From a virus (lineage: Duplodnaviria; Heunggongvirae; Uroviricota; Caudoviricetes): a stretch of DNA of 64,000 bases. How positions within the stretch are numbered: position 1 is the stretch's first letter; the number at the start of each line of letters is the position of its first letter. The DNA is taken from the IMG/VR virus record IMGVR_UViG_3300031134_000466. The stretch is one strand, 5' to 3'. The notes under the pieces are model-generated. The model was not told the origin of the DNA and searched no databases. It saw nothing but the letters and a program-made list of their open reading frames with translations. Below are positions 5,108 through 62,312 of this stretch, in pieces. A program made the position numbers and the translations under genes.

Positions 5108-5148
5108 GACACAAGTGTATCACAGATGTTTGAAGAAAAGAACAAGAC

Positions 5149-9545: not shown

Positions 9546-10065
9546 CCACGTAGGTGTTCACGTGGTCAAGAAGCTCGGCAAGGGTTGCGTACTGAATCTT
9601 ACCGTCAAAGCTCGGGGCGAAAGGCTGACCCTGCCATGTCATGCGACGGTAAACCCAGCCATGCTCACGCTTAGCGAAAGTGATGGTGTTGACACCAGAG
9701 TCGATGTCAAGCGAGCGGGCTTCAACCTGCTTCAGGTACCAACCAGTAAGCTGGGTCTTACGGTAACGGATGTACTGGGCGACAAGCTTAGCGTCTTCCT
9801 CATCAGGAGCAAGGTAGTTCATGTAGTTGCTGTACTCACTGCTGTTATCAGGAACCACCAGAGCAGCGATGAAGAACGTGCCTACATGCATGTCCCTAAC
9901 GACAGGGACACGGTACTGGGCGACCCACGGGTGGTTGATGTCAACCTGGCTCAGGGTGGTCTCAGTGTAACCTTCGGCAATATCTGTACTCATTTGAAGA
10001 ACTCCAATATGATGGGGAACAGGACGTATTAGCTCTACTCTACCAGACGCAGGTTCTAAAATCAA
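9481..10065 (-). CDS. Hypothetical protein
   Basis: ORF, 4-nt overlap with downstream-strand neighbour at 10062-10065. Confidence 0.5.
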   Translation of the reverse strand: MILEPASGRVELIRPVPHHIGVLQMSTDIAEGYTETTLSQVDINHPWVAQYRVPVVRDMHVGTFFIAALVVPDNSSEYSNYMNYLAPDEEDAKLVAQYIRYRKTQLTGWYLKQVEARSLDIDSGVNTITFAKREHGWVYRRMTWQGQPFAPSFDGKIQYATLAELLDHVNTYVDEVSPKWIAFKEKEAALEGAE

Positions 10066-10685
10066 CCCTTGTTCTGTTTAGCCCATTCTACACCAGCAAG
10101 GAAAGCATCACGAGGACGCTCGTCCTTCCAGGAATCAGCAATGGCAGCAGCTTCAGGGTCAACATCGTCCTTCGTCTTCACGAAAACATCGCTCACCAGC
10201 ATGAAAGTGATACGAAGTCTATCCTGCATGAACATCACATCTCGGGAAATGTACTCAAGCCCATCTTTGTACTTGACCTGCATAGGACTCTCATTGAGAA
10301 TTCCATCAGAAATAAAGTCGTCAATCTCCCAGCCTTTTGCCTGAAGTCGCTCAGTGATTGTCGATGCGTACTCAGTACGGTAAGCGTAACGCTCTTTCTT
10401 CTTTCGGTCGAAGTACTTGTCGCCGTAGCGATATGCAACGTAAAGACCTGCTGCAATGACTGCAAAACCGATGACGGTGCCAAAGAACTCGTTCACTGTC
10501 TTACCGAACATGGTGAAAAAGGGAACAAGGATGACAAGCGAGCCCAGGATGCCGGCAAGCATGAACAGGTTAGCTCGAAGCTTCTCGTCCCAGTCACTGA
10601 GACCGTAGAATCGCTTCATGTCAGGGTCAAAACTAATCCACTGCTCTTTGTAACGAGGAACAGGCTTGAAAGTCTCTACAGACAT
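10062..10685 (-). CDS. Membrane protein (2 TM), unknown function
   Basis: Two long hydrophobic helices (LFMLAGILGSLVILVPFF; VIGFAVIAAGLYVAY). Confidence 0.5.
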   Translation of the reverse strand: MSVETFKPVPRYKEQWISFDPDMKRFYGLSDWDEKLRANLFMLAGILGSLVILVPFFTMFGKTVNEFFGTVIGFAVIAAGLYVAYRYGDKYFDRKKKERYAYRTEYASTITERLQAKGWEIDDFISDGILNESPMQVKYKDGLEYISRDVMFMQDRLRITFMLVSDVFVKTKDDVDPEAAAIADSWKDERPRDAFLAGVEWAKQNKG

Positions 10686-10758
10686 TATGAATCTCCCAAA
10701 ATAAGTCTGGCGAATAATATAGTCGTCAGTCTACCAAGGAAAAGCAGGAAAAGCAACC

Positions 10759-11367
10759 TTAGTCGTCAGATACTTGCTGCCACGCAACTGCAGCATCATT
10801 CCACTCCAGAGCATTGTCGATGTCACCAACCCATTCTCTTACTGATGGCAGCCGGTCACCATTCAAGAAGTTCCGCTTGATTTTCAAGCGTGGGACATAG
10901 AAGCCACCGACTTTTTCTAAGGAACTATGCAAGTTCTCAGTGGGAAGGAACTTGTCAAGGATAGCTGCAAATTCGGGCACAGCTAACCATAGATTGTTCA
11001 CGGAAAGGAACGGAGCAGTGTCAACATGGATAGCACGGTAGAAGTTTACGTCTGAATCGTACATGTAACCGCTTGCTATCCCACCAAAGATTTGCGGTTC
11101 AAATTTGGGGCGGTAAGTGACTTTTCTTGTTTCACTCAACGGAGCATCAATTTTTATCAAGTCAGGAACATATCTTGATGCAGACTTCTCTGTTTTTAGG
11201 TGAAGCAGGTAACCTGTTTGGTCCCAAAAGATTAGACTGTTAGGTACGCTTTTCATCTGTTTCTTGCTCAATAAGTCAAGTTTCGCAAGTTCAGATTTTA
11301 GACTCAACCGACTGATGTCAGGATCGTTCGATAGCTCTTTTGTGTAAGAGTGTGAGGTAATGTTCAT
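10759..11367 (-). CDS. Hypothetical protein
   Basis: ORF only. Confidence 0.45.
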   Translation of the reverse strand: MNITSHSYTKELSNDPDISRLSLKSELAKLDLLSKKQMKSVPNSLIFWDQTGYLLHLKTEKSASRYVPDLIKIDAPLSETRKVTYRPKFEPQIFGGIASGYMYDSDVNFYRAIHVDTAPFLSVNNLWLAVPEFAAILDKFLPTENLHSSLEKVGGFYVPRLKIKRNFLNGDRLPSVREWVGDIDNALEWNDAAVAWQQVSDD

Positions 11368-11369
11368 GA

Positions 11370-12155
11370 TTAGTTATTCACCGTTTCAAAGTAGTATCTA
11401 TTATCGTCATGTTCAACGAAGTGACGTTCAGAAATGTTCTCATTCCCATCTACATACACTTTCAGCTTCCCGCTTCGAACAGTTCCTTCTGTGATAACGG
11501 AAGACTCTCGTCTGGTGGTGCCGTATTCAGTAGAAGCAACATTGTAGTTAGTGAGAATCCATTTTTCGACATCAGTACTGCTGTTGTCAGTGAACCATCC
11601 ACCAGGTAGGAACACTGATACCACAGCCGCGACCGCAAAAATAGATGTCAGAAGAGCTACATGAGCTCCCAGCACATGACCAACAACCTCTTTCCTCTCA
11701 CCCTTAGAGAAGACAACAAAAACCATAGCTAACAAACCAGCAAAAATGACTATGGCCACAACTCGTGCCACCCAGGTGATGATAGACGTTGAACCATCAA
11801 CCCACTCTAAATATTGTGGGTTGGTATAGATCAGATGACCTTTTACCCGAGGTCCGAACAAACCAAGAGAAATAGAGGTGATGTAGAACACAACCCCCAG
11901 GATGGCTAACCAGATCAGTGCTTTTGATTTGGATTTAGAATAAGCAGTTCCAATGTCATTGGCAGTGTCTTTGAAAAATGCTTTACTGTCACCAATCATA
12001 TTTTCTGGACTCAGAGGATCAGTTGAAGTGTTGGAAACAGTTTTAGGCTCAGGCTTTTTCTCTTCAAAATCATTTTTGGAGAAGCCGGTAATAAGATCAT
12101 CAGACATAGTATGTGATCCTATCATGAGTGCATTAGACGCATGAATAAAAGTCAA
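11370..12155 (-). CDS. Membrane protein, unknown function
   Basis: Three hydrophobic segments in the central region; 3-nt spacing from downstream gene. Confidence 0.5.
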   Translation of the reverse strand: MTFIHASNALMIGSHTMSDDLITGFSKNDFEEKKPEPKTVSNTSTDPLSPENMIGDSKAFFKDTANDIGTAYSKSKSKALIWLAILGVVFYITSISLGLFGPRVKGHLIYTNPQYLEWVDGSTSIITWVARVVAIVIFAGLLAMVFVVFSKGERKEVVGHVLGAHVALLTSIFAVAAVVSVFLPGGWFTDNSSTDVEKWILTNYNVASTEYGTTRRESSVITEGTVRSGKLKVYVDGNENISERHFVEHDDNRYYFETVNN

Positions 12156-14394: not shown

Positions 14395-16512
14395 TTACAG
14401 TTCACGACGACCTGTACGCAGTTCACGAAGCATACGCTCGTAAGCATATCCTGTCATTTCAGCGTCATTGTAAGCACGGTGAGCGCCAAGGTAAGGAACA
14501 TTGTAGCGGGCAGTGAATGAAGAGAGCTTATCGTTCGGAACATCAGTCAGAAGACGACGAGACAGTTTCAAAGTGTCAAGAATTTTGATTTTCTTGTGCT
14601 TCACAGCATCAGCAAAACCAGGAACATGTGTGGACATCCAACGCTGTTCAAAAGTCTTGTTGTGAGCCATCATGATACCAACATTTGTCAGCTGGTCAAG
14701 AACAGCAGTACCTTCAGCAGGGTTCAAGAACTGACGCTTCTTCGCAATCTGAGTTTCAGTAATACCATGCACTTCACTGTTGCCTGTGCTGCGAGTCAGG
14801 AGAGCTTTCTTCGAAAGACCGTAAAGCTTGCTTGTCTTAGCTTTCTCAGTGTCATTACGAGTCAGAGTAGAGTTACGGTAGTTGGTACGAACGGATGCAC
14901 CATACTCGATGATGCTACCTGAAGTAGGCTGAGAACCGGCAGTTTCCAAATCAACACTCACATAGTCAGGAAGCGTTTCCTGCTTAGCTGCCGTGACGTA
15001 GAGGCTACGAAGCTGAGCCGCAACATAGGTTCGGTCTTTGCGATTCTCATCATCGAAGTTGCCAGCAAACTCCTGCTCAACAACCTTAGAATCAACACCA
15101 CGCATTGTTGCAACTTCAGTGAAGATTTCCTGCTTCTCTTTGTTACTCAAGCTGGAGTTCAGAGCGTTCTGAGAGAAACCACGAGCGCGGTTACGTCCTT
15201 CCCAAGTACCAGCCTTACGGGAAGCAAGCTCGGTGTTGAACTTCTTCACAGCTTCAAGGTTGCCAGCAGCTTCCTGCTCAAGCTCAGGAGTCATAGTGAA
15301 ATGGTATTCACGGTATTCACGGTCGTCAATGACAACTGCAACCATACCACGCTTGAAACCAGCAGCCTGAGCATACCAAAGAGTCTGAGCTCGGTAAGTG
15401 TCAGGAACACCATCCAAACCATCTTCAGGGTTACCCCATTTGCCAGCAACAGAAGCAGTCTTGATTTCGACAATACCGTCAGGGTTACCATCCTTGTCAG
15501 CCATCAGACCGTCAAAGTTAGCAAACTGGAACTCGTTCTCGTTGTGCTTCCAAGAAGACTTGCAGAAAGTGATGTTGTCGTCAGGGTTGTTCTGCACAAC
15601 CTGGAGGAAGATTCGCTTCTCCCAAGCGTTACCACGACCAGCCGCGCCAGCATACTCTTCGTTGTTCAGTGCCTGCTCAGCAACCTGCTCATCAGTGATG
15701 GGTTCAAGCTTGGACTGCATGATTTCTTCATAGCTGTTGTAAGCACCCTTGACTCGCTTGATGGCTCCAACATCTGAACCACCAATACCTTTCTGACGCT
15801 GCTCAAGCCATTCACGAGTACCTGACTCGAACTCAGCAGTCTTAGTGAGTTCATTCAGCGTCTCTTTGTCATACTCACGCCATTCGCCAGCTTCACGAAG
15901 ACGGTTCTCTTCAAGGTCGGCAAGGTGAGCCACAACAGGTGCTGCAACGTCTTTGTACTCGTTAATCTGACGGCGGAGGAGACTGACTTCTTCGTTGATG
16001 TCAATCATCGCAAGTTCCTTCTGACGAACATCTTCGTAAAGGAACGCAGGGTCTTCTTCCCACTTCTTCTTCAGAAGGTCACGGTCAGCTTTAGTCTCCT
16101 CAAGAAGCTGCATGTTTGCATCACGCTTCTCAAGCAGGGCAGTAAAGTCTTCAGAGTTGATACGGTCCTGGATGAAGCTTTCCATGGCTTCCTCATCACC
16201 TGATTCAATCAGGCGGGCAGCTTCAGCTTTATCCTCTTCAACGGTCTTCAGAGCTTTCTGGTGACCGTAGGAACTAACAGGAGTGTAGGTACGCTCCATA
16301 GCTTCCTTCAAAATAGACATAGCAAGCAGGCTCTCAACATCGTTTGTGTTGTTCAGCTGCTTCTCAACCAGCTCAGCATTCTTGTGCTGATGATACTGGT
16401 ACTCAGTCATGTGTTCTCCGTTTATCAGTGTGCATTTCTTCTGTGCAGGGCAACGGACCCAATCGCCTTGCCTCTTGCCTGATTGCTGTTTATGGTAGTT
16501 CTTCATGGTCAA
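14395..16512 (-). CDS. Dual exonuclease: YqaJ/lambda-Exo-like PD-(D/E)xK domain fused to C-terminal DnaQ-like DEDDh 3'-5' exonuclease, with N-terminal coiled-coil
   Basis: GIGGSDVGAI motif, DG...DGIVEIK, Y..Q.Q (YqaJ family); then DLETAG (Exo I), AHNKTFE (Exo II), HRAYNDAEMT (Exo III, DEDDh). Confidence 0.7.
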   Translation of the reverse strand: MTMKNYHKQQSGKRQGDWVRCPAQKKCTLINGEHMTEYQYHQHKNAELVEKQLNNTNDVESLLAMSILKEAMERTYTPVSSYGHQKALKTVEEDKAEAARLIESGDEEAMESFIQDRINSEDFTALLEKRDANMQLLEETKADRDLLKKKWEEDPAFLYEDVRQKELAMIDINEEVSLLRRQINEYKDVAAPVVAHLADLEENRLREAGEWREYDKETLNELTKTAEFESGTREWLEQRQKGIGGSDVGAIKRVKGAYNSYEEIMQSKLEPITDEQVAEQALNNEEYAGAAGRGNAWEKRIFLQVVQNNPDDNITFCKSSWKHNENEFQFANFDGLMADKDGNPDGIVEIKTASVAGKWGNPEDGLDGVPDTYRAQTLWYAQAAGFKRGMVAVVIDDREYREYHFTMTPELEQEAAGNLEAVKKFNTELASRKAGTWEGRNRARGFSQNALNSSLSNKEKQEIFTEVATMRGVDSKVVEQEFAGNFDDENRKDRTYVAAQLRSLYVTAAKQETLPDYVSVDLETAGSQPTSGSIIEYGASVRTNYRNSTLTRNDTEKAKTSKLYGLSKKALLTRSTGNSEVHGITETQIAKKRQFLNPAEGTAVLDQLTNVGIMMAHNKTFEQRWMSTHVPGFADAVKHKKIKILDTLKLSRRLLTDVPNDKLSSFTARYNVPYLGAHRAYNDAEMTGYAYERMLRELRTGRREL

Positions 16513-16555
16513 TCTCTAACCTACCGCATTAACGTTTGAACCGCAAATCGAGCTT

Positions 16556-18429: not shown

Positions 18430-21147
18430 ATGGCCACCCTCATCGGCGTATCAGGAAAAATTGCGTCAGGTAAAGATTACTTGACTGACAAGCTTGTAAA
18501 CGAACTGAAACGTCTTGGTTTTACCATCGACTACACAGCCTTCGCTGCACCCCTGAAGCAGGAACTCAACGAAATCATCTCTCTGATTCGAGCTTTCCCT
18601 GAACAGGATGAACTGACTCTTTCTTTCTCCATCGCTCGTAATCTGGACATCAACTACGATGATGCTCTTCTGATTGCTACTAATCTGAGAACAGAAGTGC
18701 TTGCAGATGAAACTCTCAACGGTTACTCACGAACAGTCAAAATTCGTGAATCTCTTCAGTATCTTGGTACAGAGATTCGCAGGAAGCAGCGTCCTGAATA
18801 CTGGACTGACTTGTTCTTGAACTTCGTCAACAATTCAGAAACAGATTTCATTTTCGTTTCAGATGCACGTTTTCCTAATGAAATGGACACGGTTGTCGAC
18901 AATCAAGGTGTTGCTCTACGTCTTGACATTCCAGAAGAAGTTCTTGCAGAGCGTCGAAACAAGCGTGACGGCATCAAATACACTGATGAGCAGTTGAATC
19001 ATATCTCAGAAACTGCACTGGATGATTACACCAAATTTGACATGATGATTGGTGTGCAGTTCAACGAACGTGAAATCGTAGAGAATATCCTGAAAAAAGT
19101 TGAACGACTTCAGGAACTTCCTGCAAAAGCTTCTCGCGTCCTGAAAGCCAAAATCGCAGAGCATACACCTTCAGTGTCAGATAAGAAAGATGTTTACCCA
19201 GAGGTGAATTTACCTGAAGGCCAGTACAAAGTGTTGTCTTTGTTTGCAGGTGCAGGTGGATTAGATTTAGGTTTTGAGTTAGCTGGATTAGAAGCAGTTC
19301 ACGGTAAAGAAAAAGTGGACGCTGCTTACAAAGACAAAAAAGCATTTGACGAGCTCCGCAAAGAGAACCTCATTCACACGGTCTACGTAAATGACAACTT
19401 CAAAGATGCAATAGCTTCCTACCGTCAGAACTTTCCTGAAACGTTTATTGACGAACGAGATATCAAAAAAATCAGCAGCTTCCCTGATGCAGACCTTCTG
19501 TTAGGTGGATTCCCTTGCTTCCCTAAAGGAACAGGTGTAGCTACAGAGACAGGTTACAAAAACATTGAAGATGTCGAGAAAGGTGATTTTGTTCTCACTC
19601 ATGAAGGTCGTTACCGTGAAGTAACAGACACCATGACACGCAATGTGAACAAATCAGCCACTCTACATGCTTACGGTTCTCTTCCTTTGGTCTCAACGGT
19701 GAATCATCCTTACTGGGTGAAAGAAACTGTCGATTCTGAACCTAAATGGGTTCATGCTGAGAACATTCAGCCAGGTTGGTTTGTGTCTCATCCAATCAGC
19801 ACATTCAGTACAGATGAAGTAACCGAAAAAGAAGCCAAGTTTGCTTACTTAGCCGGCGTCTTCGCTCAGTGTGGTACAAAAACTTTGAACGACGAGCACA
19901 AGCCAAGCTATCTCACTCCTTACAATGATGAGGAGTTCCTGGCTTTGCTGGCTGAAATTGATGCTGTCTGTTCAAAAGAAGGCAAAAACGTCATCGTCCA
20001 CAGTGAACAGCTGAACAAGATGATGAAATTGTTCGGAACTACCAAATGGAACAAAGTCATTCCTGAAGAGGTCCACCAGAAACCACGAGCTTGGCAGAAA
20101 GCTTTCCTTGACGGCTTCCTGTTCCACAACTCTGACCAGGAAGTGCACAGCAAGAACTTGGCTGTTGGCGTGGCTCGAATTATTCGTAGTTTGAACCCTA
20201 CACAGGATGTTATCGTGTCCTCACCCAAATACAGTTCCTGGATTGTAACTGCAACTGACACTACCGTAGCTCATCATGATGACAACTATGTATGGGTTCC
20301 TGTGGAGCGTTTGCAAGTAAGAAACGAAATGGGAGTACTTCCTGTTTACGATATTACTGTAGCCGAAGACGAATCATTCGTAGCAGATGGATTTGTAGTT
20401 CACAACTGCCCTGGCTTCTCAGCAGCAGGTCTTCGCATGTTAGATGACCCTCGCAACTTCCTGTACCTGCATTTCGTACGAGCTGTTGTTGACGCTCAAC
20501 CAAAGATTTTCGTAGCAGAAAACGTAAAAGGTCTACTCACTCATGGTCAAGGTGAAGCTTTCAACCAGATAGTCGAAGACTTTGCAGCAGCAGGTTACAC
20601 CATCTACTACAAGCTGATGAAAGCAATTCAGCATGGTGTACCTCAGATGAGAGAGCGATTGATTATTGTTGGTGTGCGAAACGACATTGATTTTGAATAC
20701 CAGCATCCTGCTGCCACTCATGGTGAAGGTCTACTTCCATACAAAACTCAAAGAGACGCTTTCTACGATTTGAGGGACCTGAACGATGAACACTACGAAG
20801 GAGACTTCTCTTCTCGCTACCGTTCCAGAAGGTTCAAACTGGACTGGGATGTACCGTCAAAGACCATTTTGGCAACAGGGCGGCACCTGCCTTTGCACCC
20901 TGACGGAGTGCCTCAGGAGAAGCTGGAGCAGGACTTGTGGAGTTTAGACGCTGCAGACCGTAGATTCACTGTAAGAGAAGCTGCACGAATCCAGACATTC
21001 CCTGACTGGTATGATTTCGTGACAACCTCTCGCGGAACAACCAACACAGTCCTGGAGAAACAGTACCGTCAGATAGGTAACGCTGTTCCTGTCGAACTGG
21101 GACGAGTTGTTGCTGAACCTATTGTTCAGTTCCTGAAAAGTCTGTAA
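18430..21147 (+). CDS. Fusion protein: T4 gp1-like dNMP kinase (N-terminal) + DNA (cytosine-5)-methyltransferase interrupted by an intein
   Basis: N-term GVSGKIASGKDY...AAPLKQEL and SDARFPNEMD match dNMP-kinase P-loop and DxR motifs; MTase motif I FAGAGG, motif IV GGFP-C...PGFSAAG (split by intein), ENV (motif VI), QMRER (VIII), GNAVPV (X); one continuous frame. Confidence 0.85.
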   Translation: MATLIGVSGKIASGKDYLTDKLVNELKRLGFTIDYTAFAAPLKQELNEIISLIRAFPEQDELTLSFSIARNLDINYDDALLIATNLRTEVLADETLNGYSRTVKIRESLQYLGTEIRRKQRPEYWTDLFLNFVNNSETDFIFVSDARFPNEMDTVVDNQGVALRLDIPEEVLAERRNKRDGIKYTDEQLNHISETALDDYTKFDMMIGVQFNEREIVENILKKVERLQELPAKASRVLKAKIAEHTPSVSDKKDVYPEVNLPEGQYKVLSLFAGAGGLDLGFELAGLEAVHGKEKVDAAYKDKKAFDELRKENLIHTVYVNDNFKDAIASYRQNFPETFIDERDIKKISSFPDADLLLGGFPCFPKGTGVATETGYKNIEDVEKGDFVLTHEGRYREVTDTMTRNVNKSATLHAYGSLPLVSTVNHPYWVKETVDSEPKWVHAENIQPGWFVSHPISTFSTDEVTEKEAKFAYLAGVFAQCGTKTLNDEHKPSYLTPYNDEEFLALLAEIDAVCSKEGKNVIVHSEQLNKMMKLFGTTKWNKVIPEEVHQKPRAWQKAFLDGFLFHNSDQEVHSKNLAVGVARIIRSLNPTQDVIVSSPKYSSWIVTATDTTVAHHDDNYVWVPVERLQVRNEMGVLPVYDITVAEDESFVADGFVVHNCPGFSAAGLRMLDDPRNFLYLHFVRAVVDAQPKIFVAENVKGLLTHGQGEAFNQIVEDFAAAGYTIYYKLMKAIQHGVPQMRERLIIVGVRNDIDFEYQHPAATHGEGLLPYKTQRDAFYDLRDLNDEHYEGDFSSRYRSRRFKLDWDVPSKTILATGRHLPLHPDGVPQEKLEQDLWSLDAADRRFTVREAARIQTFPDWYDFVTTSRGTTNTVLEKQYRQIGNAVPVELGRVVAEPIVQFLKSL
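19516..20406 (+). mobile_element. Intein (297 aa) with LAGLIDADG homing-endonuclease motifs, inserted at the catalytic Pro-Cys of MTase motif IV
   Basis: Starts with Cys (CFPKGTGVATETG...GDFVL block A), block B TVNH, two dodecapeptide motifs (YLAGVFAQCGT; FLDGFLFHNSD), ends VVHN followed by +1 Cys; excision restores GGFPCPGFSAAG. Confidence 0.8.
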
Positions 21148-23380: not shown

Positions 23381-23433
23381 TATGGTGTGCAGCAGATAAG
23401 ATTTTTCTTGCTATCTGTTAGGAATACAAAACT

Positions 23434-24246
23434 ATGTGCAAACGCAAACCATACCCTCGTTGCAGCTACCATGCTCGCATCAAACTTGAAGCTGCAGAAA
23501 AGTCTGGTGATCTTGAACGCATCAAGCTTGCAAGAAGGAACTATTTCACTTCATTAGCTGGTATTGCTGACCTCAAAGCTCAGGGTAAAGATGCATTAGC
23601 TGCAAAATATGAGACTCGTAGAGCAAATCTCATTGCTCAAGCTGAACGTGAGACTAACCTCCGCAAGACACCCCTGGTTTTGGCGTTGGATGTAGACAAC
23701 ACCAGTGGTGACTTCACAGAATCCATTCGTAACCATGTCATGAAGACACAAGGACTTACTCCTGAACAGGCTGAAACACTTCTTCCTAGCCCTCCAACTC
23801 ACTACTCTTTCGTAGACTCAGGCTGGTTCACTGACGTTAACTCATTCCTGGATGCTTTCCATTCAGCGGAAGAGAATGGTGTTTACTCCAAGATGAAAGC
23901 TTTTGACGGAGTAAGCAAGACTCTTCGCACTTTGGTCAGTAATCGTGACGTTGAAGTTCGTGTTGTGACGGCCCGTGGTAACAGATGGAATGAAGAGACC
24001 CGTCAGTGGTTGCGTCGTCATCGTATTCCTTTCACTTCCATCACTCACACTGAGGACAAAGAGAAAGTCCCAGGTATCGATGTGTACATTGATGACTCTG
24101 ACAAGCAGATTAACACTCTGCAGAAGAACGGTAAGACAGTTATTGCGTTCGAGAATGCATACAACGCAACTGTTCCTTCTAAGTATCGTGTAAAGAAGTG
24201 GAAAGAAGTGCCGGCAGTTCTGAAACTCATCGCACAAGCCAAATAA
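23434..24246 (+). CDS. HAD-superfamily phosphatase carrying the N-terminal Cys-KP-RCS-H module shared with the three ADP-ribosyltransferases
   Basis: N-term MCKRKPYPRCSYHA; HAD motif I LDVDNT, motif II VVTARG, motif IV YIDDSD. Confidence 0.7.
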   Translation: MCKRKPYPRCSYHARIKLEAAEKSGDLERIKLARRNYFTSLAGIADLKAQGKDALAAKYETRRANLIAQAERETNLRKTPLVLALDVDNTSGDFTESIRNHVMKTQGLTPEQAETLLPSPPTHYSFVDSGWFTDVNSFLDAFHSAEENGVYSKMKAFDGVSKTLRTLVSNRDVEVRVVTARGNRWNEETRQWLRRHRIPFTSITHTEDKEKVPGIDVYIDDSDKQINTLQKNGKTVIAFENAYNATVPSKYRVKKWKEVPAVLKLIAQAK

Positions 24247-26371: not shown

Positions 26372-27676
26372 ATGGGAAAAATCATTGAAGAGACAATGCT
26401 TGTCATGGTTGACACAAAGAACAACAACAACAAGTTCTACCATGTCACATTGGATGATGCTAACGTCGTCACCAAGCGCTGGGGACGTGTAGGAGCTGAA
26501 GGAGCGAGTTCCGTCGAGACAACAGGCAAGATTGGTTACGAGCGAGCCATCAAGTCCAAAGAGAAAAAGGGCTACAAGGTCTCACCTATTGTTAGCACAG
26601 GTGTCACAGTCAAGAGTTCTGTCAACCACCTTGACGAAGTAGCTAAGAAGTTTCTGTCCAAGGACAGCGGAGACAGCCTTATCAGCAACCTCATTGACCG
26701 ACTCATCGCATCAAACCAGCACCAGATTATGGAGCAGTCCGGTGGTATGATTAAGATTACCGACGACGGAACCGTAAAGACCGCTCTCGGTGTTGTTGAC
26801 CTTTGCTCCATCAACTCTGCCCGAGACCTCATTGGTGAGATGCAGAAGAAGAAAACAGGGCAGACCAAGCTCCTGGAAGATTACCTCACCCTCATTCCTC
26901 AGAACATTGGGTACCGTCGTGGTTGGGAAGAGGACTTCCTGAAGACGGAAAACTTTGCCAAGCAGATGGACTTCTTGAAGCAGCTTGAGGATTCTGTGCA
27001 GTGGCGAAACACCACCGCACAGGTCACCACAGATGACGAAGACAAGTTCGACATCGATGCTCACAAAGACCTGTTCCGCATGAACCTTGCGAAGATTTCC
27101 GACAGCGGAAAAGACTTCGACCGTATCAACAAGATGTTTAAAGAAACACGCAACAACATGCACACATCACGTAACCTCAAACTTGTGAACGTGTATGCAG
27201 TGGAAGATGTCAAGGGCAAGGAAGCTTACGAAGCTGCTCAGAAGAAGTATGGAAACGTACGTGAACTCTGGCACGGAACAAAAGCCTCCAATGTTCTCTC
27301 CATTCTCACAAAGGGATTGTTCGTGCCTAACGCAGGTAGCGGTATCCCTGTGACAGGAAGAATGTTCGGTGATGGTGTCTACTTCAGTGACCAGAGCACC
27401 AAAAGCTTGAACTACGCCAACGGTTACTGGGATGGTTCACGCACCAGCCAGAACTGTTTCATGCTTCTGAACGATGTTGTCATGGGTCATGAGTACCGCC
27501 CTCAGCGTTGGGACTACAGCTCTCTCCGTCAGGCACACAAGGGCGTTGGAACTTCAGGTAAGCCTTACCAGTCCATCAGCGTTCGTGGTGGAACCTGTAA
27601 CGTTCGAAACAACGAAATGATTATTTGGAACACTGACCAGGTGGCTGTACGTTACCTCTGCGAATTTGGTAGCTAA
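26372..27676 (+). CDS. Poly(ADP-ribose) polymerase (PARP)-like protein: WGR domain + helical regulatory region + catalytic domain with H-Y-E triad
   Basis: WGR motif KFYHVTL...VVTKRWGRVGAEG...KKGYKV; catalytic LWHGTKASNVLSIL (His), GVYFSDQSTKS (Tyr), YANGY, NEMIIWN (Glu) in PARP order. Confidence 0.85.
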   Translation: MGKIIEETMLVMVDTKNNNNKFYHVTLDDANVVTKRWGRVGAEGASSVETTGKIGYERAIKSKEKKGYKVSPIVSTGVTVKSSVNHLDEVAKKFLSKDSGDSLISNLIDRLIASNQHQIMEQSGGMIKITDDGTVKTALGVVDLCSINSARDLIGEMQKKKTGQTKLLEDYLTLIPQNIGYRRGWEEDFLKTENFAKQMDFLKQLEDSVQWRNTTAQVTTDDEDKFDIDAHKDLFRMNLAKISDSGKDFDRINKMFKETRNNMHTSRNLKLVNVYAVEDVKGKEAYEAAQKKYGNVRELWHGTKASNVLSILTKGLFVPNAGSGIPVTGRMFGDGVYFSDQSTKSLNYANGYWDGSRTSQNCFMLLNDVVMGHEYRPQRWDYSSLRQAHKGVGTSGKPYQSISVRGGTCNVRNNEMIIWNTDQVAVRYLCEFGS

Positions 27677-27745
27677 TTGACAGCTTTTAGCCTATCTGCT
27701 GAAAATCACCAGAAAAGAAATATCGTATCAGTGATGCTGGTAAAG

Positions 27746-28399
27746 CTAATTGTGTTTTTTTGCAGGTACAGGTCTACTCATTGAATTTGCACTTCCTAAT
27801 ATGAATATTAACGCTGTGCTGGCTAAATTCAATATATTACTAAACGTTAAAACTAAATTTAGCCTTGATTGTTTTGTTTCACGGATTTCAGGATTGTAAA
27901 CATATTCTGGTACTTCTGCCAAGCATTTTTCTTTAGGAGTTAGGTTGTTGTACCAGGCAGCTGTTTGGGGCATGGAACCGGCACTATTTGAAACATTCGC
28001 ACATCGTTCGGCGGGAGTCATATTCTCTATTCGGGCGTCATTCAAAGAAGTTCCAATTACAATACTTTGCAGAAGGAAAGATATAACACTCAAAGTCAAG
28101 ATAAGACCAGGTAATTTTGATAAAGATTTTGTGTCATTGCCTCTTCTAAACCATAGGCTAATTGTAGGGGCTAAAATAGCTATAGTGAATATCAACGTGA
28201 GTACGTAAAATTGTTTCGTACTTATAAACTCAGCATATCGCATAAGTAACAAAACGATATTTACAGAAACATAAAATAACATCCAATACCAAAATTCACT
28301 TTTACTGGCTGTTCCTTGGGGCTTGAAACTACGTTCAAATCCATGGCGTATTGCTCTGAAAAAATTAACAGATTCTGCAACAGGGGGTATATAAGTCAT
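27746..28399 (-). CDS. Membrane protein (4-5 TM), unknown function
   Basis: Multiple hydrophobic helices; no motif recognised. Confidence 0.45.
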   Translation of the reverse strand: MTYIPPVAESVNFFRAIRHGFERSFKPQGTASKSEFWYWMLFYVSVNIVLLLMRYAEFISTKQFYVLTLIFTIAILAPTISLWFRRGNDTKSLSKLPGLILTLSVISFLLQSIVIGTSLNDARIENMTPAERCANVSNSAGSMPQTAAWYNNLTPKEKCLAEVPEYVYNPEIRETKQSRLNLVLTFSNILNLASTALIFILGSANSMSRPVPAKKHN

Positions 28400-28538
28400 A
28401 CATCTATATTCGGTTCAAAAGAACAAAATAACACTTAGATAACAGGCTATTGATCGGATGTAGAGAGGATGACATGTTTCTATAGTGCGTGTATCTCAGA
28501 TAATCTAAGGTTGTAATTCGCCTTGTTAGACATAAACT

Positions 28539-29579
28539 ATGACCACTGCTACTAAATGTGCCAAACCAAAAGGGGTATATTGCCGTTTGCACAACCCTGA
28601 ACCTCGTGGGTATGCTTCTGCATCAGAAGCGTTAAATAAAGCAGAGCAGGACTTCAACAAAGCCAACCCGATCAAATCTTCTTCTCCTGGTGTTTCTTTT
28701 CATAAAAACGGTGAGACTCGCACATTGCACAAAAGTGTTCCAGAGAACATTGCTGACCATATTGCTTTGAATCAAGAACAACTGTCTCACTTGTCAGACA
28801 TGCAGAAGAAAGCTTTGAACGGTTACACCGGCTTTGCTGCAGGTGTTTGCAATAGTGTGTTGTTAGCAAAAGAATTCGCTTATGAGTATTACGAAGATGC
28901 CCCTCTATGGAAAGAAGCCCCAGGAGGAGCGTGTGACTTTGTTTCTCGTGAAGATTTAGTTGACTACATGGAAACAATGGATGGTATCCTTGCTTCCCGC
29001 CAGGAACAATCCCGAGTTCTATACCGTGGTATTCCTATTTACTCAGAACTGCATGACGAGATTGGTAATGGCATAGGTAAAAAGCTGCCTTTCGCTGATG
29101 CTACTGGCTTAGCAGAGGGTTTGAGTGAATATTACAAGCCTGGTACTGTCATTAAGCATGACCATTACTTGTCCACAACAGCATCAGCGTATTATGCAGC
29201 TGACCGTACAGACAATTCCATCGGGACAAAAAAGAGCTATTACGATAGCAATGATGTACCAGTCGGTATTGTCTTTGAGCTGAAAACCAATGCTGGTTTG
29301 GATGTTACAGCTGCAGCTCGTCATCATTCTTATGAACGTGAAGTGGTGTTACCTCGTGAAACTTACTTCAAAGTTGTCAACGTGGACGTGAATCCACAAG
29401 CTTATGACACTGTTTCAGGATTCGATACGCTCAACCATCCTGAGGAGCGAGAGCAGAAAACTTTCACTCGCTTAGCTGCTGTTGTTCAGATGGTCGAAGT
29501 AGACAAAAACGGCAAAGAAATAACAGGTACTGCACCTCATAATCCAGAGAGAAAAATCAGCGACATCATTCCTGGATGA
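28539..29579 (+). CDS. Mono-ADP-ribosyltransferase (R-S-E class) with N-terminal Cys-KP-C-H module
   Basis: N-term KCAKPKGVYCRLH; Arg motif VLYRGI, Ser-Thr motif YLSTTAS, catalytic YEREVVLPRETYFKVV (E-x-E). Confidence 0.7.
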   Translation: MTTATKCAKPKGVYCRLHNPEPRGYASASEALNKAEQDFNKANPIKSSSPGVSFHKNGETRTLHKSVPENIADHIALNQEQLSHLSDMQKKALNGYTGFAAGVCNSVLLAKEFAYEYYEDAPLWKEAPGGACDFVSREDLVDYMETMDGILASRQEQSRVLYRGIPIYSELHDEIGNGIGKKLPFADATGLAEGLSEYYKPGTVIKHDHYLSTTASAYYAADRTDNSIGTKKSYYDSNDVPVGIVFELKTNAGLDVTAAARHHSYEREVVLPRETYFKVVNVDVNPQAYDTVSGFDTLNHPEEREQKTFTRLAAVVQMVEVDKNGKEITGTAPHNPERKISDIIPG

Positions 29580-29610
29580 CAGCACCTTTGTTGGATTACT
29601 CCAAATATAG

Positions 29611-29660
29611 TTAAAAAGCTGTGGCGCCACCTCTACAAAGGTGGCGCCACAGCTTTTTAA
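29611..29660. terminator. 21-bp perfect stem-loop between convergent genes
   Basis: ttaaaaagctgtggcgccacc tctacaaa ggtggcgccacagctttttaa. Confidence 0.55.
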
Positions 29661-29884
29661 CTTCTCATTTTCCTCTTATTAGCCATCTCCAATATTCTGT
29701 TGTATTCAACAACCTGCAGTAGAGCAGCACGTAGAGTATCTTCTAAGAACGCACCGTCTTTGTTTCGGTAGTCGGTACTGACTGAGATGTGATTGCCGTT
29801 CACAGTGAAGCGGATGAAGTTGGCTTCATGAGGCTGTGAGGCCGGGGATGGTTTTCCGAGGTGGAGTGATACGTTTTTTGACAT
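29657..29884 (-). CDS. Small hypothetical protein (75 aa)
   Basis: ATG at 29884 with GAAAGGA RBS; longer ORF to 29953 lacks RBS. Confidence 0.35.
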   Translation of the reverse strand: MSKNVSLHLGKPSPASQPHEANFIRFTVNGNHISVSTDYRNKDGAFLEDTLRAALLQVVEYNRILEMANKRKMRS

Positions 29885-30049
29885 GGTTATCCTTTCAGTT
29901 GGTGTTATTGACTGAAAAGATAAATTTGCGTTACATGTCTTAGATAGTATCACATTCGTTTAGGACTCGGACAGAATCACTTATCGGCTACTTGCTCGAA
30001 AGTGTGATGTTTTCAACTAAGCTGCATTCAAATATGGTAACCTGTAATT

Positions 30050-30460
30050 ATGACTAACGAAAACCTGACCATGCATGATGTCGAAGTTGATGACCAAGTA
30101 GAAATTATTTTCACTAACGGTGACCGAATCACAGGGACTGTGACTTCTCCTAACATCAGCTCCACAATGCGTATCCAGACCATTTTTGCTGGGGACACAT
30201 ACATCTCTTTGCACAACGTAGACAGCTACACGGTAAAGAAGGTCCACGACAAGCAGGAACCTTTCGAACCTGAAGGTGAAGGAGAAATCTGGGGTTACAT
30301 CCAGTACCAGGTTCGAGGTTTCGCTGCAATCAACAAGAAGCAGGTCCACCGTGACGCTAAGGGGCTATGGCACATGGATGGCAAGTCAGGAACCTGGGCG
30401 AGACTTCAGTTCAACATTGGTCAGGACTTCACATTTGTTCAGTTGGTGGAAGCTAACTGA
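30050..30460 (+). CDS. Hypothetical protein
   Basis: ORF only. Confidence 0.45.
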   Translation: MTNENLTMHDVEVDDQVEIIFTNGDRITGTVTSPNISSTMRIQTIFAGDTYISLHNVDSYTVKKVHDKQEPFEPEGEGEIWGYIQYQVRGFAAINKKQVHRDAKGLWHMDGKSGTWARLQFNIGQDFTFVQLVEAN

Positions 30461-30499
30461 GGTTGGTAGCATATGCTTACATCTTGTTAGAGATTAGGT

Positions 30500-31465
30500 A
30501 TGTGCTACCCCAAACCTGGTCCTCGCTGTTCAGCTCATGCTGCAGTTAAACTGGCGACTGTAAAACTCGCTTCTACCAGCGGTAGTCAAGATTTTGCCGA
30601 GTACTTAGCTCATCAGGAGCGTCTTGAAGAAGCTCAGCTGGAGTATGACATCACGCCAGCAGGTTTGAAAGATTTACAGGATTTAGTGGGTCAACGAAAT
30701 GACCCTGACGCTGAGCTCCGTTATTCCAAAGCTAAAGCCCTGAGAGCAAAGAAGTTGGCTTTGTTGCATGAAGACCAGAAACAAGAGCAAGGTCATACTC
30801 TTGCAAGGGTTCAAGGGGTAAATGAAGATTTTTGTTCTGATGAAATTGTTCGTTCTAACAAAGATGCTGGAATCACATCCGCAGCTTTAGTAGCTGAAGC
30901 TGAACCGTGGTTTAATCAGTTGAACGATGATGAACTTTCTCAAATGCACTGGATGACCGACTATGGTTCAATGGAAGCTAATACGCACATCGCAGGAACC
31001 AATGACCATAAACGTTTTGGTGGTCTATTCTCTGCAGAGAACTTGGAATCTCGTATGGTTCAAGTTGACTCGGCTTTGAGTAAGTTTGAGTCACATCATG
31101 ATGAAGTTGTCTACAGGGGCTTTCGTGAAGGCTCTCTTCCCTCTGCTATGGCAAACAACTACCGGGTATCAGATGATGTGAAGCAAGCTGCAGTTCTGAA
31201 ATCTTTCACCGTAGGTGAAGTCTACAAGTCTGATTTCTACATGCCAACTTCTGTACAGCCTGAAGAGGCTGCTCGTTTTGCTGATTTCGGTTGCGTCATG
31301 GAAATCAAAACCCGCAAAGCTGCTCCTGTATCTGCCATTTCTGAAGTTCCCCGTGAGTCAGAAAAACTGATTGGTCGTAACAGTGAATTCAAAGTCGTGG
31401 CAATCAAAGAGAACATCATGTACGGCATTAAGAGAATGACTGTTGTTCAGTTAGAGCAACTCTAA
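30500..31465 (+). CDS. Mono-ADP-ribosyltransferase (R-S-E class) with N-terminal MCYPKPGPRCSAHA module
   Basis: Arg motif VVYRGF, Ser-Thr motif YMPTSV, catalytic PRESEKLIGRNSEFKVV (E-x-E). Confidence 0.7.
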   Translation: MCYPKPGPRCSAHAAVKLATVKLASTSGSQDFAEYLAHQERLEEAQLEYDITPAGLKDLQDLVGQRNDPDAELRYSKAKALRAKKLALLHEDQKQEQGHTLARVQGVNEDFCSDEIVRSNKDAGITSAALVAEAEPWFNQLNDDELSQMHWMTDYGSMEANTHIAGTNDHKRFGGLFSAENLESRMVQVDSALSKFESHHDEVVYRGFREGSLPSAMANNYRVSDDVKQAAVLKSFTVGEVYKSDFYMPTSVQPEEAARFADFGCVMEIKTRKAAPVSAISEVPRESEKLIGRNSEFKVVAIKENIMYGIKRMTVVQLEQL

Positions 31466-39327: not shown

Positions 39328-40449
39328 TCAGTCAGCAGTTTTTCCGTTCAAGTTCCAGAATGGCTTCTCAAACTCAGGCTGAATCATTTTCCAGATGATG
39401 TCAGAGATTTTCTTCTCAGACCTGGTATCAAAATGACCTCCGCTGTGACGAGAGAATAACAAACCAGTAATGCGTTTGTCTTCTTTCTGTACAGCTGCAG
39501 CGTAGTCCTTCTGAGTGTATCCTTCAGGAAGTTCAGAAAGAATACGGTTGTAAGTTTCCTCAACTGTTGCACGCAATTCAGCATGCTCTGCAAGTAGTCG
39601 GTCACGAGTTGTTTCGACATACTCAACGAACTCATCAGGGAGACCAACAATCCATGAAGTGAAGTCACCGTCAGCTACAAGCAGCTCCCAGATGCGACGC
39701 GAAGAAGCACCTGTGATGACACGGTGAAGCTGAACGTAGTCATCCTGTTTCACTTTCACTCGAACATCACTATCCAGGAAGTGAACAACAACGCCTTCTT
39801 TGTTCTCACGACCAGGAGCGGCCAAAGCTTCAGTAAGGCTGTTGTATTCAAACTGCTCAACCTTCAACCAAGTCCATTCATCAACCTGTGATGCTGGTAC
39901 AGAGCGACCTGTTGCTGTGTTCACTCGGGCAATCAAGATGAGGTCATCCAAATCACCGTAGTTAACAACGATACGGTTTGTAGGGTAGATGATTTCCCAG
40001 ATGTAAGTTTCACCAGCAAGTGGCTCCCATTTTCCGTCGTACAGCTCCTGGTAACGTGCTGTGGCATGCAGAGCCTGCTCAGAGCTGAATGAACCTCGTG
40101 TGGAGATGTTCAGTCGACCAGTTTCAGGGTTTACATATGAAACACCCATAGAACCATCTGCTTTGTCTGTGACAACGATAGGTCCAGTCAGTGCATCCTG
40201 AGGAACATCTGGTTCGCCGTGGTTAAAGAACTTACCAAGAGGGCGGGAGACAATCTCCTGGGTGGAACCGTCAACGATAAGTCCTCGTGAAGCTAATGTT
40301 GCAGCGTTCCAGGCTCGGTCAAACTGGCATACCTGTGAGTAGTCAAAGATAGCCAGGTCAAGCGTAGGGTGAACCTGACGATTGATGTGCTTGTTCTGGA
40401 ATTCAGCTGCCCAAAGTTCAGCAGGAGCGATATCGTAAATGTGTACCAT
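39328..40449 (-). CDS. ATP-dependent RNA ligase (Rnl family), paralog 1
   Basis: Nucleotidyltransferase motif I TDKADGSMG (KxDG), same order of downstream motifs as ORF 54122. Confidence 0.7.
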   Translation of the reverse strand: MVHIYDIAPAELWAAEFQNKHINRQVHPTLDLAIFDYSQVCQFDRAWNAATLASRGLIVDGSTQEIVSRPLGKFFNHGEPDVPQDALTGPIVVTDKADGSMGVSYVNPETGRLNISTRGSFSSEQALHATARYQELYDGKWEPLAGETYIWEIIYPTNRIVVNYGDLDDLILIARVNTATGRSVPASQVDEWTWLKVEQFEYNSLTEALAAPGRENKEGVVVHFLDSDVRVKVKQDDYVQLHRVITGASSRRIWELLVADGDFTSWIVGLPDEFVEYVETTRDRLLAEHAELRATVEETYNRILSELPEGYTQKDYAAAVQKEDKRITGLLFSRHSGGHFDTRSEKKISDIIWKMIQPEFEKPFWNLNGKTAD

Positions 40450-41293: not shown

Positions 41294-42706
41294 ATGCCAA
41301 TTGGTCAAAAAATTGTAGGAGTAGCTGTAGCAGCTACAGTTTCATTAAGTGCGGTAGCTTTTGTGGCTTCTCCAGCACTTGCTGATGAGGCAGCTCCTAC
41401 GACAACACAAGACGTTCCTACGGAAGTAGAAACTGGGACTGAGGGAGTTGCTCCAGCAGCTGACCCTGTTGAGGAAGAAGTACCTGCTCCTGAGGTTGCA
41501 GTACCAGAAGAGACTGAACCTGAAGTAGTTGTTCCATCTGAAGAAGCACCAGTAGAAGAAGTACCTACTGAAGAAGCACCTGTTGAAGAAGTTCCTGTCG
41601 AAGAGGTCCCTGCAGAGGAAAATGCTTTGGTAGCAACAACATTTGCTTTGACTTTTGGTGGTGACACATCAACTGTTCCTGAAAACCTGACACTTGAAGT
41701 TCACTATACTTCTTTGGTGAATGATGAAGTGCAGGATAATGTTGTTTACCTAACCCGCGATGTCCCTCCTACTGCCATTGACATCCCTGAAGGTTCTACA
41801 GTTCAGGTTTCAGTAACTGGTTTACCTGACATCGAAAACACAACACTAAACCCAGTTGTTCTGCTCAATGGGAATCCTTTGCCTGCTGATGGTGTTACAT
41901 TAGTGTCTGGTGAAGTGTATGATTTTTCTGTAGCTATTGATGCAGTAACAGAAAACCCTGCACCTTCAGACGCTCCTGCTATTCAGCAGGATGAAGCTCT
42001 TCCTGTTGATGTAGAAAACCTTATTTCTGTAAATGCTGCAGTTGCTTTCCCTGGTGACACTATAACTGTTTCTGCTTCAAGCGTTGCTACTCCTGAATCT
42101 TGGGTTTCAGTATGGCTTCATTCCACTCCTGTGCTTCTCGCTGGTTGGGTTCAGACTGACGTGAATGGAAACATTGATGTCACAATTCCAGCAGGTACCG
42201 AAACTGGTGAACACCGTATTGTTGTGTCTGACGCAGACAACAACATTGTAGGTTGGACAAGCATTCTTGTTGTCAACCAGGATGATGAAGTTATCGTTCC
42301 TGGAGAAGACCCTGAAACCCCTGTAGACCCTGAAACGCCTACAGACCCTACCCTTCCTGTGGACCCTACAACTCCTACTGACCCAGAAGTGCCAGTTACT
42401 CCTACAAACCCAGATGCAGGAGTAACTCCTGAGACTGAACCAGAAACAACTCCTCGTGACCCTTCTTCTGGCGGAGTATCCATCATTCCTGAGGAAGAGT
42501 TCAACACTGGAGGTTACGACAATGATGAGTTGGGTAACGTAACAGACCGTGGTGACCGCTCAGACATTAACACCAGAGCTTTGGCTTACACTGGTTCTGA
42601 CTCCAACTCCACGGTGTTCCTCACCTTCATGGGTGGTCTCATGTTGATTGGTGGTTTCGTCCTCCGCAGACTTCCTCGTCTGCGTGCTGCACGTCGCAAT
42701 AGCTGA
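41294..42706 (+). CDS. Cell-wall-anchored surface protein with LAxTG sorting signal and acidic Pro/Glu/Val repeats
   Basis: Signal peptide; EEAPVEEVPTEEAPVEEVPVEEVPAEE repeats; DPxTPTDP repeats; C-terminal LAYTG + hydrophobic segment + RRLPRLRAARRNS tail. Confidence 0.75.
   Translation: MPIGQKIVGVAVAATVSLSAVAFVASPALADEAAPTTTQDVPTEVETGTEGVAPAADPVEEEVPAPEVAVPEETEPEVVVPSEEAPVEEVPTEEAPVEEVPVEEVPAEENALVATTFALTFGGDTSTVPENLTLEVHYTSLVNDEVQDNVVYLTRDVPPTAIDIPEGSTVQVSVTGLPDIENTTLNPVVLLNGNPLPADGVTLVSGEVYDFSVAIDAVTENPAPSDAPAIQQDEALPVDVENLISVNAAVAFPGDTITVSASSVATPESWVSVWLHSTPVLLAGWVQTDVNGNIDVTIPAGTETGEHRIVVSDADNNIVGWTSILVVNQDDEVIVPGEDPETPVDPETPTDPTLPVDPTTPTDPEVPVTPTNPDAGVTPETEPETTPRDPSSGGVSIIPEEEFNTGGYDNDELGNVTDRGDRSDINTRALAYTGSDSNSTVFLTFMGGLMLIGGFVLRRLPRLRAARRNS
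41527..41625 (+). repeat. Imperfect ~30-nt tandem repeats encoding (E/V)E(A/V)P(V/T)EE
   Basis: gaagaagcaccagtagaagaagtacctact / gaagaagcacctgttgaagaagttcctgtc / gaagaggtccctgcagaggaa. Confidence 0.5.
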
Positions 42707-42792: not shown

Positions 42793-44685
<1,893 letters not shown>

Positions 44686-50666: not shown

Positions 50667-50800
50667 GATTCTAATGTTCCTTAATCGTTGTCAGCTTTAT
50701 GAGCGGTCAAAGAATTCTATCATCAACGGCTAAAGCACATAGTATTTGACAGCTGGCTGGGTTTCATGGTAAGTTGGAGTATCTTAAGTTAGGAAACAAA

Positions 50801-54080: not shown

Positions 54081-54121
54081 TTTTTGTATTCTGCTGTCTG
54101 TTTCTTTGTTAGTAATAGGGC

Positions 54122-62238: not shown

Positions 62239-62312
62239 TCACAAAAACGTGCTTTTTCGTCAATATGACGATATACTGTAATAAGAATGGTCTAAGGAAG
62301 GAAACCCGTATC

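Follow-up and report, generated by a model that had tools for sequence, protein, structure and literature searches.

Bacteriophage T4 encodes Alt, ModA and ModB, mono-ADP-ribosyltransferases of the R-S-E class (arginine, serine-threonine and E-x-E motifs) whose targets are RNA polymerase and translation factors; virions contain packaged Alt. MuF fusions of ADP-ribosyltransferases (ARTs) and polyvalent proteins represent head-packaged, injected phage ARTs (PMC9503650), and Alt/VIP2 ARTs, PARTs and the synthesis of nicotinamide adenine dinucleotide (NAD) are common in large phages (PMC9503650, PMC11662467). The present analysis concerns a 64,000-nucleotide stretch of DNA, referred to below as the window, from the IMG/VR virus record IMGVR_UViG_3300031134_000466 (Caudoviricetes). 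Three of its genes, called A, B and C, probably encode diverged R-S-E mono-ART paralogues that serve an uncultivated, very large phage-like element in host takeover, judging from their sequences, structure models and the analogy with T4. Like T4 with its Alt, ModA and ModB, the element combines several diverged ART paralogues of the R-S-ExE type with a T4-type polynucleotide kinase (Pnk) and Rnl1 in one large phage-like genome. The genes and their motifs are located as follows (aa, amino acids; ORF, open reading frame).

28539-29579, plus strand: ART A, ORF of 346 aa, N-terminal Cys knuckle followed by the R-S-E ART domain
28557-28592, plus strand: knuckle of A, C7-x7-C15-x2-H18
29022-29030, 29166-29180 and 29334-29342, plus strand: catalytic motifs of A, Y162-R163-G164, Y-L-S212-T213-T and E266-R-E268
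30500-31465, plus strand: ART B, 321 aa, N-terminal module at aa 1-~100 (30500-30799), ART domain at ~aa 135-321
31112-31120, 31238-31252 and 31355-31363, plus strand: catalytic motifs of B, Y-R206-G, Y-M-P249-T-S and E286-S-E288
51758-52729, minus strand: ART C, 323 aa, N-terminal module at aa 1-102 (52424-52729), then the ART domain
52100-52108, 51989-52003 and 51875-51883, minus strand: catalytic motifs of C, Y-R209-R, F-L-S245-T-S and E283-Y-E285

The first-pass annotation had placed the three ORFs correctly and had read in each of them the order Arg, Ser-Thr, E-x-E. This order is borne out by YRG 162-164, YLSTT 210-214 and EREVV 266-270 in A, by YRG 205-207, YMPTS 247-251 and ESEKL 286-290 in B, and by YRR 208-210, FLSTS 243-247 and EYEFI 283-287 in C. 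Its description of A and B as adjacent holds in the sense that they are neighbours, but not strictly, as 920 bp lie between them, with a hairpin and two small ORFs, one of 75 aa (minus strand) and one of 136 aa (plus strand). No further R-S-E ARTs were found in the window by a hidden Markov model (HMM) scan of all six frames.

Membership of all three proteins in the R-S-E clade of C3, iota/VIP2 and T4 Alt/Mod, likewise proposed at the outset, is upheld by profile, fold and alignment. The Pfam family PF03496 (ADPrib_exo_Tox), whose gathering threshold is 23.4 bits, matches B with 57.1 bits (E 2e-15) and C with 74.6 bits (E 8.7e-21). In PHROGs, the 'ADP-ribosyltransferase exoenzyme toxin' annotation is matched by B and C, while PHROG 802, 'Alt-like RNA polymerase ADP-ribosyltransferase', matches C (E 1.3e-8) and weakly A (E 5e-3), with no match to B. 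Among PDB sequences, C finds VIP2, CDTa and iota Ia at ~1e-7, its Y-R, S-T-S and E-x-E falling on the catalytic residues of the toxins, and B finds VIP2 at 4e-4 with the catalytic motifs in register. The assignment of A is made through its family: the majority of its 109 homologues carry PF03496, and in an alignment of 28 sequences with 36-74% identity to A, the residues Y162, R163, G164, Y210, S212, T213, E266, R267 and E268 are invariant. The profiles of the A family and the B/C family align in hhalign with a probability of 99.7% (E 1.6e-25) and with the R, S-T and E-x-E columns in register; the A-family profile also matches the Vis toxin (E 6e-5), with these same residues aligned.

The structure models point in the same direction. 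The AlphaFold (AF2) model of A, with a predicted local distance difference test (pLDDT) of 89.2 and a predicted template modelling score (pTM) of 0.81, is matched by Foldseek to Plx2a, VIP2, C2-I, C3bot, Vis and iota Ia (E ~6e-9, probability 1.0). The model of B also gives fold matches to solved ART toxin structures, and in the BFVD fold search it matches T4-type Alt proteins at E about 2e-6; BFVD fold matches further include minor-capsid or head-morphogenesis ART fusions. In the model topology, the Arg closes one strand, the S-T lies on the strand that follows, and a strand begins with the second Glu. The arginine of region 1, R163 on strand 159-166 in A and R206 on strand 202-207 in B, is invariant in 28 (A) and 32 (B/C) homologues. 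The E-x-E glutamates (E266/E268 in A, E286/E288 in B, E283/E285 in C) are invariant across the aligned homologues and match the ExE of VIP2 and Vis. The same arrangement of regions 1, 2 and 3 has been described for this toxin group (PMC3000352). An ART fold with aligned R/S/E positions, on which the first-pass annotation had staked its claim, is what was found: the models of A and B match solved ART toxins, and the catalytic residues lie on the expected strands and in the expected alignment columns. By predicted fold and catalytic residues, A, B and C are ADP-ribosyltransferases.

Several results weigh against the interpretation as takeover ARTs of a phage. Taken alone, A reaches 19.9 bits with PF03496, under the cut-off. 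B is without the first Ser of the STS motif and has Pro249 at this position, where 30 of the 32 family members have Ser. The tblastn search gave no direct match to T4 Alt or Mod or to T4-like phages, so that the link to Alt comes from the PHROG profile and the fold matches. The knuckle of A does not match the B/C module significantly by HMM (E about 1). Capsid, portal and terminase genes were not found within the window, and searches of IMG/VR and of 50,697 phage records (INPHARED) gave no relatives. The low Pfam score of A, together with the lack of any match of A alone to PDB sequences (phmmer), could be taken to mean that the R/S/E motifs arose by chance in ORFs that are not ARTs. The chance of this is negligible, since profile, fold and conservation evidence agree, and the hhalign alignment of A with B/C and the Foldseek matches of the A and B models refute it.

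The further proposal, that each protein probably represents a new ART variant, goes too far. B and C score above the PF03496 threshold, most homologues of A carry this domain too, each family has dozens to ~100 metagenomic homologues, and Alt/VIP2 ARTs have already been described as being among the most frequent viral ARTs (PMC9503650). Their catalytic domains are ordinary, further members of a well-known family. They add little alone, because phage Alt/VIP2-type ARTs, poly(ADP-ribose) polymerases (PARPs) and NAD synthesis are all documented.

The three ARTs have diverged to different degrees. B and C are plainly paralogous (28% identity, E 6e-30), and A is much more distant from both (~21% identity at profile level). 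The canonical signature is complete in A (Y-L-S-T-T) and C (F-L-S-T-S), and the Y-R-R of C resembles R295-R296 of iota toxin. Unlike PF03496 exotoxins, B has P-T-S instead of S-T-S, and its sequence suggests that it may have altered or weaker chemistry. Pro at the first STS position occurs only in B and its 94% orthologue P0138 among the 32 members, and the two also share Gly292, where 26 of the 32 have Pro. These changes speak for B being a pseudo-enzyme with impaired catalysis that is retained for a binding or regulatory role, which would leave A and C alone as active transferases. This is possible but doubtful, as B retains R206, E286 and E288, Thr250 and Ser251 are still present, the STS motif is reported not to be a strict requirement in at least one ART (PMC3000352), and the gene has a ratio of nonsynonymous to synonymous substitution rates (dN/dS) of 0.061. 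This ratio was obtained against the orthologue in L002 (JGI 3300055143, Ga0540644_0000002), a metagenomic contig of 776,377 bp that is 94-95% identical to window 18084-38585; the corresponding values are 0.067 for A and 0.06 for a PARP gene upstream of A. All three ART genes are intact and evolve under purifying selection, and B is not decaying.

Because the closest solved structures are bacterial exotoxins, the proteins could also be viewed as toxins that a cell or megaplasmid encodes for secretion or delivery by contact, acting against eukaryotes or rival bacteria in the manner of C3, iota or polymorphic toxins. The occurrence of the N-terminal module on Rhodococcus megaplasmids and in a Demequina chromosome, as well as the presence of relatives on 0.6-1.0 Mb contigs, would fit such an origin. 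However, it is very unlikely. A, B and C are only 12-20% identical to the C3/VIP2/iota Ia/C2-I/CDTa/Vis/Certhrax exotoxins and, unlike these, have no secretion signal; the N-terminal sequences are hydrophilic and show no visible signal peptide. In contrast to the binary actin toxins (iota, C2, VIP2, CDT), each has a single ART domain, unaccompanied by an inactive ART-like adaptor domain or a B component. Among the nearby genes, none was recognised as a binding/translocation component, PAAR, Rhs or immunity gene. Phage-like gene content also speaks against such toxins, as does the absence of the module from almost all GTDB genomes. An anti-phage defence system was considered separately and rejected, as A, B, C, the PARP and the neighbours are all without a PADLOC match.

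As takeover enzymes, A, B and C would use NAD+ to mono-ADP-ribosylate arginines. This specificity is suggested because all three carry E-x-E, which in this toxin group goes with arginine targets, while Q-x-E is linked to Asn, Gln or Cys (PMC3000352). The substrates would be differing host proteins modified during takeover in the style of T4 Alt, ModA and ModB, and separate host targets for the three paralogues are plausible by this analogy. The proteins differ from T4 Alt itself in being half its size (the PHROG 802 profile has 674 positions) and in carrying an N-terminal Cys-knuckle module instead. It is also conceivable that they are real ARTs with another substrate, attaching RNA by way of NAD-capped RNA, ADP-ribosylating DNA or RNA, or acting mainly as NAD+ glycohydrolases or in an anti-defence role. 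T4 ModB, also of the R-S-ExE type, RNAylates proteins (PMC9503650); the partners carrying the same kind of tag (exonuclease, RNA ligase, nucleotidase) act on nucleic acids; and the ART of L006 adjoins a KptA/Tpt1-type RNA 2'-phosphotransferase. Even with these points in its favour, such a role is unlikely compared with the modification of host proteins.

The N-terminal regions set these ARTs apart. In B and C, the first 15 residues are identical, MCYPKPGPRCSAHAA, and the codons differ synonymously. They open a helical module of ~100 aa with a Cys-x7-Cys knuckle and the consensus M-C-Y-x-K-P-G-P-R-C ... T-P-A-G ... G-D-x-x-H. Invariant positions in the 32-sequence alignment are M1, C2, Y3, K5, P6, G7, P8, R9, C10, S11, T52, P53, R82 and H99 (B numbering), and the model of B has four helices after the knuckle. 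The module region has no Pfam family and no PDB match. When 1.84 billion representative proteins were searched with a profile built from the first ~100 residues, 960 clusters matched at E <= 1e-3, of which 329 reached E <= 1e-10; these counts come from an exhaustive search, a word-indexed search with the N-terminal profile having given 4 matches. The module starts at residue 1 in 150 of the 150 matches listed. Among 135 module members scanned for domains, 54 have PF03496, and the others found are DUF7226 (4), RNase_T (3), YqaJ (2), T4-type RNA ligase (2), LPD29 (1), HD (1) and RNase H (1). The remainder have no known domain, and some consist of the module alone (~110 aa). Further examples are P0157-P0160, P0238, P0247 and P0263. 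Within the window, a module or a shorter knuckle is also found on three other enzymes.

23434-24246, plus strand: NT5C-type deoxyribonucleotidase (PF06941), module start MCKRKPYPRCSYHA, module at 23434-~23660; fourth window protein of this kind
54122-55363, plus strand: Rnl1-like RNA ligase, N-terminal Cys-x4-Cys knuckle
14395-16506, minus strand: RecE/YqaJ-like and DnaQ-like exonuclease, N-terminal knuckle C18-x5-C24-x6-H31

The Rnl1-like ligases P0263 and P0271 of related elements have the full MCY..PGPRC module, and so do P0238 and P0262, also of related elements, which show a similar YqaJ-type and DnaQ-type exonuclease layout. The knuckle of A (C7-AKPKGVY-C15-RLH18) is shorter, with the spacing C-x7-C-x2-H as in the B/C module. 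Its homology to that module was considered and dropped on the HMM value given above, the likeness being one of resemblance alone. At the same position, the A family has several alternative Cys-Cys knuckles (28-sequence alignment). Outside these elements, the module was found in one chromosome and on two megaplasmids, and nowhere else.

Demequina sediminis NZ_AP027736 (L005), 4697-5827 and 10001-11107: two MCY/MCK-x-KPGPRC module proteins beside pilin-like (N-methyl motif) genes
Rhodococcus opacus pRop44186_a (L012), 5974-7125: unannotated module ORF near Fic, cutinase, restriction endonuclease and GIY-YIG nuclease genes
R. ruber pmega_1 (L011), ~6001-7062: unannotated module ORF near Fic and cutinase genes

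The C-terminal part of the Rhodococcus ORFs looks acetyltransferase-like from its sequence. The module was not found by tblastn in the 50,697 phage records, IMG/VR contains no exact MCYPKPG motif, and nearly all GTDB species genomes lack the module.

MuF-ART fusions and polyvalent proteins offer the nearest parallel, in that one N-terminal module is combined with interchangeable effector domains. The best cultured-phage matches to C are MuF-ART fusions of Mycobacterium prophages. In contrast to MuF-ART fusions, the N-terminal regions of A, B and C are without MuF or any Pfam match, and the B/C module is helical and ~100 aa long. It is tentatively suggested that the module and the shorter knuckles form an undescribed addressing domain which marks co-regulated enzymes in 0.7-1.0 Mb phage-like elements, whose hosts would be Gram-positive and probably actinobacterial; the marked set may include ARTs, the RecE/DnaQ exonuclease, RNA ligase, nucleotidase, HD, GNAT-like and DUF7226 proteins. 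Such an N-terminal tag would address the battery of enzymes to one destination. By analogy with MuF fusions or the T4 capsid-targeting sequence, it could load the enzymes into the virion for co-injection. Virion packaging is attractive because MuF-ART fusions and polyvalent proteins share this logic (PMC9503650) and the best cultured-phage matches to C are of the MuF-ART kind. Alternatively, the tag could dock the enzymes on one common host or phage hub. Since the module also occurs on plasmids and in a chromosome, docking at a cellular or replicative hub, or metal-mediated oligomerisation, fits equally well.

The genes encoding these proteins also share an upstream element. Each of the six knuckle-bearing genes of the window has the motif (T/G)GTTAGNNAT upstream of its ATG, at a distance of 5 nt or, in NT5C, of 8 nt.

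28524-28533, plus strand: promoter-like motif of ART A, TGTTAGACAT, 5 nt to ATG, kept in L002
30485-30494, plus strand: promoter-like motif of ART B, TGTTAGAGAT, 5 nt to ATG, kept in L002
52735-52744, minus strand: promoter-like motif of ART C, TGTTAGAAAT, 5 nt to ATG
23416-23425, plus strand: promoter-like motif of NT5C, 8 nt to ATG
54107-54116, plus strand: promoter-like motif of the RNA ligase, TGTTAGTAAT
~16512-16521, minus strand: promoter-like motif of the exonuclease, GGTTAGAGAT, 5 nt to ATG

The exact 10-mer occurs 7 times in the window, compared with 2.2 occurrences expected. A relaxed scan found the motif before no other main ORF start in the window; its other matches are without the GTTAG core (18111, 59960) or lie 10 nt before an internal GTG (11891). 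The placement is kept in L002 before NT5C, A, an extra ART and B, and in L008/L009 before the ART; in relatives further removed, the motif position is taken by GATAGACAC or GTTATACAT. The ARTs would be part of a co-regulated, commonly addressed enzyme set with the nucleotidase, RNA ligase and exonuclease.

Many other window genes have boxes of the TAGAAT or TATAAT type 5-9 nt before the start codon. The -10 box of the PARP gene, for instance, reads TGCTATAAT-AAGAGC-ATG and ends 6 nt before the ATG. It is only this spacing between box and start that suggests widespread leaderless transcripts. The shared upstream motif was rejected as a standard sigma-70 -10 box, as TAGNNAT misfits A(-11)/T(-7), unlike the TAGAAT/TATAAT boxes of the other genes; because of this misfit, it is called only promoter-like.

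From the gene content of the window, we infer that the element is a phage. A phage-like nature is supported by the T4-type Pnk, two Rnl1-like ligases, a PARP of the jumbo-phage type, PHROG matches, many ORFans and the absence of tRNA genes from the window. Relatives are absent from nearly all GTDB species genomes, and megablast of the locus against phage and plasmid collections gave no match. Besides L002, homologues lie on other contigs of 0.6-1.0 Mb, the closest relatives measuring 776, 788, 821, 908 and 981 kb and 1,000,729 bp. The largest phage genome is given as 735 kb in a June 2026 review (PMC13282480), a size exceeded by the contigs of the closest relatives (776 kb-1.0 Mb), which may be phages, plasmids or something else. 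Compared with L002, the window differs in two cassettes near the ARTs.

27677-28522 (cassette 1, L002 9592-9984): DUF805 membrane-protein gene (27746-28399) in place of an 82-aa ORF
29573-29661 (cassette 2, L002 11035-12120): 89 bp with the terminator hairpin in place of 1086 bp with an extra 336-aa A-type ART

Related elements, too, have clusters of ARTs, with up to 3 within 12 kb. As ART copy number differs between 95%-identical genomes, this gene class turns over quickly. In L008/L009, one ART (11019-12017) is split into a 42-aa knuckle ORF and a 286-aa ART ORF, which could reflect a frameshift, a pseudogene or a sequencing error.

The host is, with low confidence, Gram-positive and possibly actinobacterial. 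This hint comes from the leaderless-type spacing, an LPXTG-type protein and the occurrence of the module in actinobacterial replicons. A DUF285 protein and a DnaK resembling those of Gram-positive phages hint at a Gram-positive host as well.

41294-42706, plus strand: weak, sub-threshold match to an LPXTG cell-wall anchor
2847-4235, plus strand: DUF285 (BspA-like) repeat protein
42826-44685, plus strand: full-length DnaK, 59% identical to DnaK-like sequences in Staphylococcus, Enterococcus and Listeria phage records

The three ARTs form part of an NAD-centred toolkit. As judged from sequence, the window holds four ART-superfamily enzymes together with enzymes of the last steps of NAD+ synthesis.

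26372-27676, plus strand: WGR and PARP catalytic protein (H-Y-E clade), fourth ART-superfamily gene, 860 bp upstream of A (PF00644 E 2.4e-29, PF05406 E 1.1e-10)
56409-57374, plus strand: NadE-like, NAD+ synthesis; could supply ART substrate
58101-59624, plus strand: NadD-like nicotinate-nucleotide adenylyltransferase, NAD+ synthesis
62265-63158, plus strand: clear NadE (NF001979, 346.9 bits against a cut-off of 250)

Homologues of the PARP that are ~40% identical to it and annotated as poly(ADP-ribose) polymerase occur in the Xanthomonas jumbo phages Xoo-sp13 and XacN1, and two Stenotrophomonas jumbo phages have equally close ones. The products of the NadD and NadE genes would help to keep NAD+ available to the ARTs. 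In this respect the element resembles the NAD-jumbo phages (PMC11662467), having NadD and NadE genes alongside PARP and further NAD consumers within a single large phage-like genome. The phage PARP is described in that source as sensing DNA damage for repair, and its text does not use the term 'ADP-ribosyltransferase' (PMC11662467). Unlike the NAD-jumbo phages as presented there, the three R-S-E ARTs add a predicted takeover arm here. The first-pass annotation had mentioned neither the Pro of B, the PARP-type ART and the NAD-synthesis genes nor the N-terminal module and the upstream motif.

The recognisable genes of the window are of kinds typical for large phages and include a helicase, the RecE/DnaQ-type exonuclease, a ribonucleotide reductase small subunit, dCMP deaminase, DnaK, the T4-type Pnk and the two Rnl1-like ligases; many ORFs are without any family. 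Pnk (50774-51706) and the ligases (39328-40449, 54122-55363) make up a T4-style RNA repair kit. Between A and B, the hairpin reads as a putative bidirectional terminator after A and the convergent 75-aa ORF.

29612-29659: hairpin with a perfect 20-bp stem and A and T runs at its sides
29657-29884, minus strand: 75-aa ORF between A and B, in close relatives only; no Pfam match (searched as the 98-aa reading 29657-29953) and no PADLOC match
30050-30460, plus strand: 136-aa ORF directly upstream of B, kept in L002 (dN/dS 0.12), in close relatives only; no family match in Pfam, PHROGs or PADLOC
50774-51706, plus strand: T4-style polynucleotide kinase/HAD phosphatase, immediate neighbour of ART C
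39328-40449, minus strand: the other of the two Rnl1-like RNA ligases
18430-21147, plus strand: dNMP-kinase-like and cytosine DNA methylase fusion, interrupted by a Hint/intein, 905 aa (Pfam on the L002 orthologue)
55747-56412: racemase-like gene

The new part of this locus is its architecture, in which an undescribed N-terminal module is joined to an ART, and the regulon defined by tag and motif. One N-terminal module on at least eight enzyme types, with one promoter-like motif in this genome, is the signature of a common address label. Identifying the binding partner of the module would reveal how takeover enzymes are deployed in batteries by very large phages.

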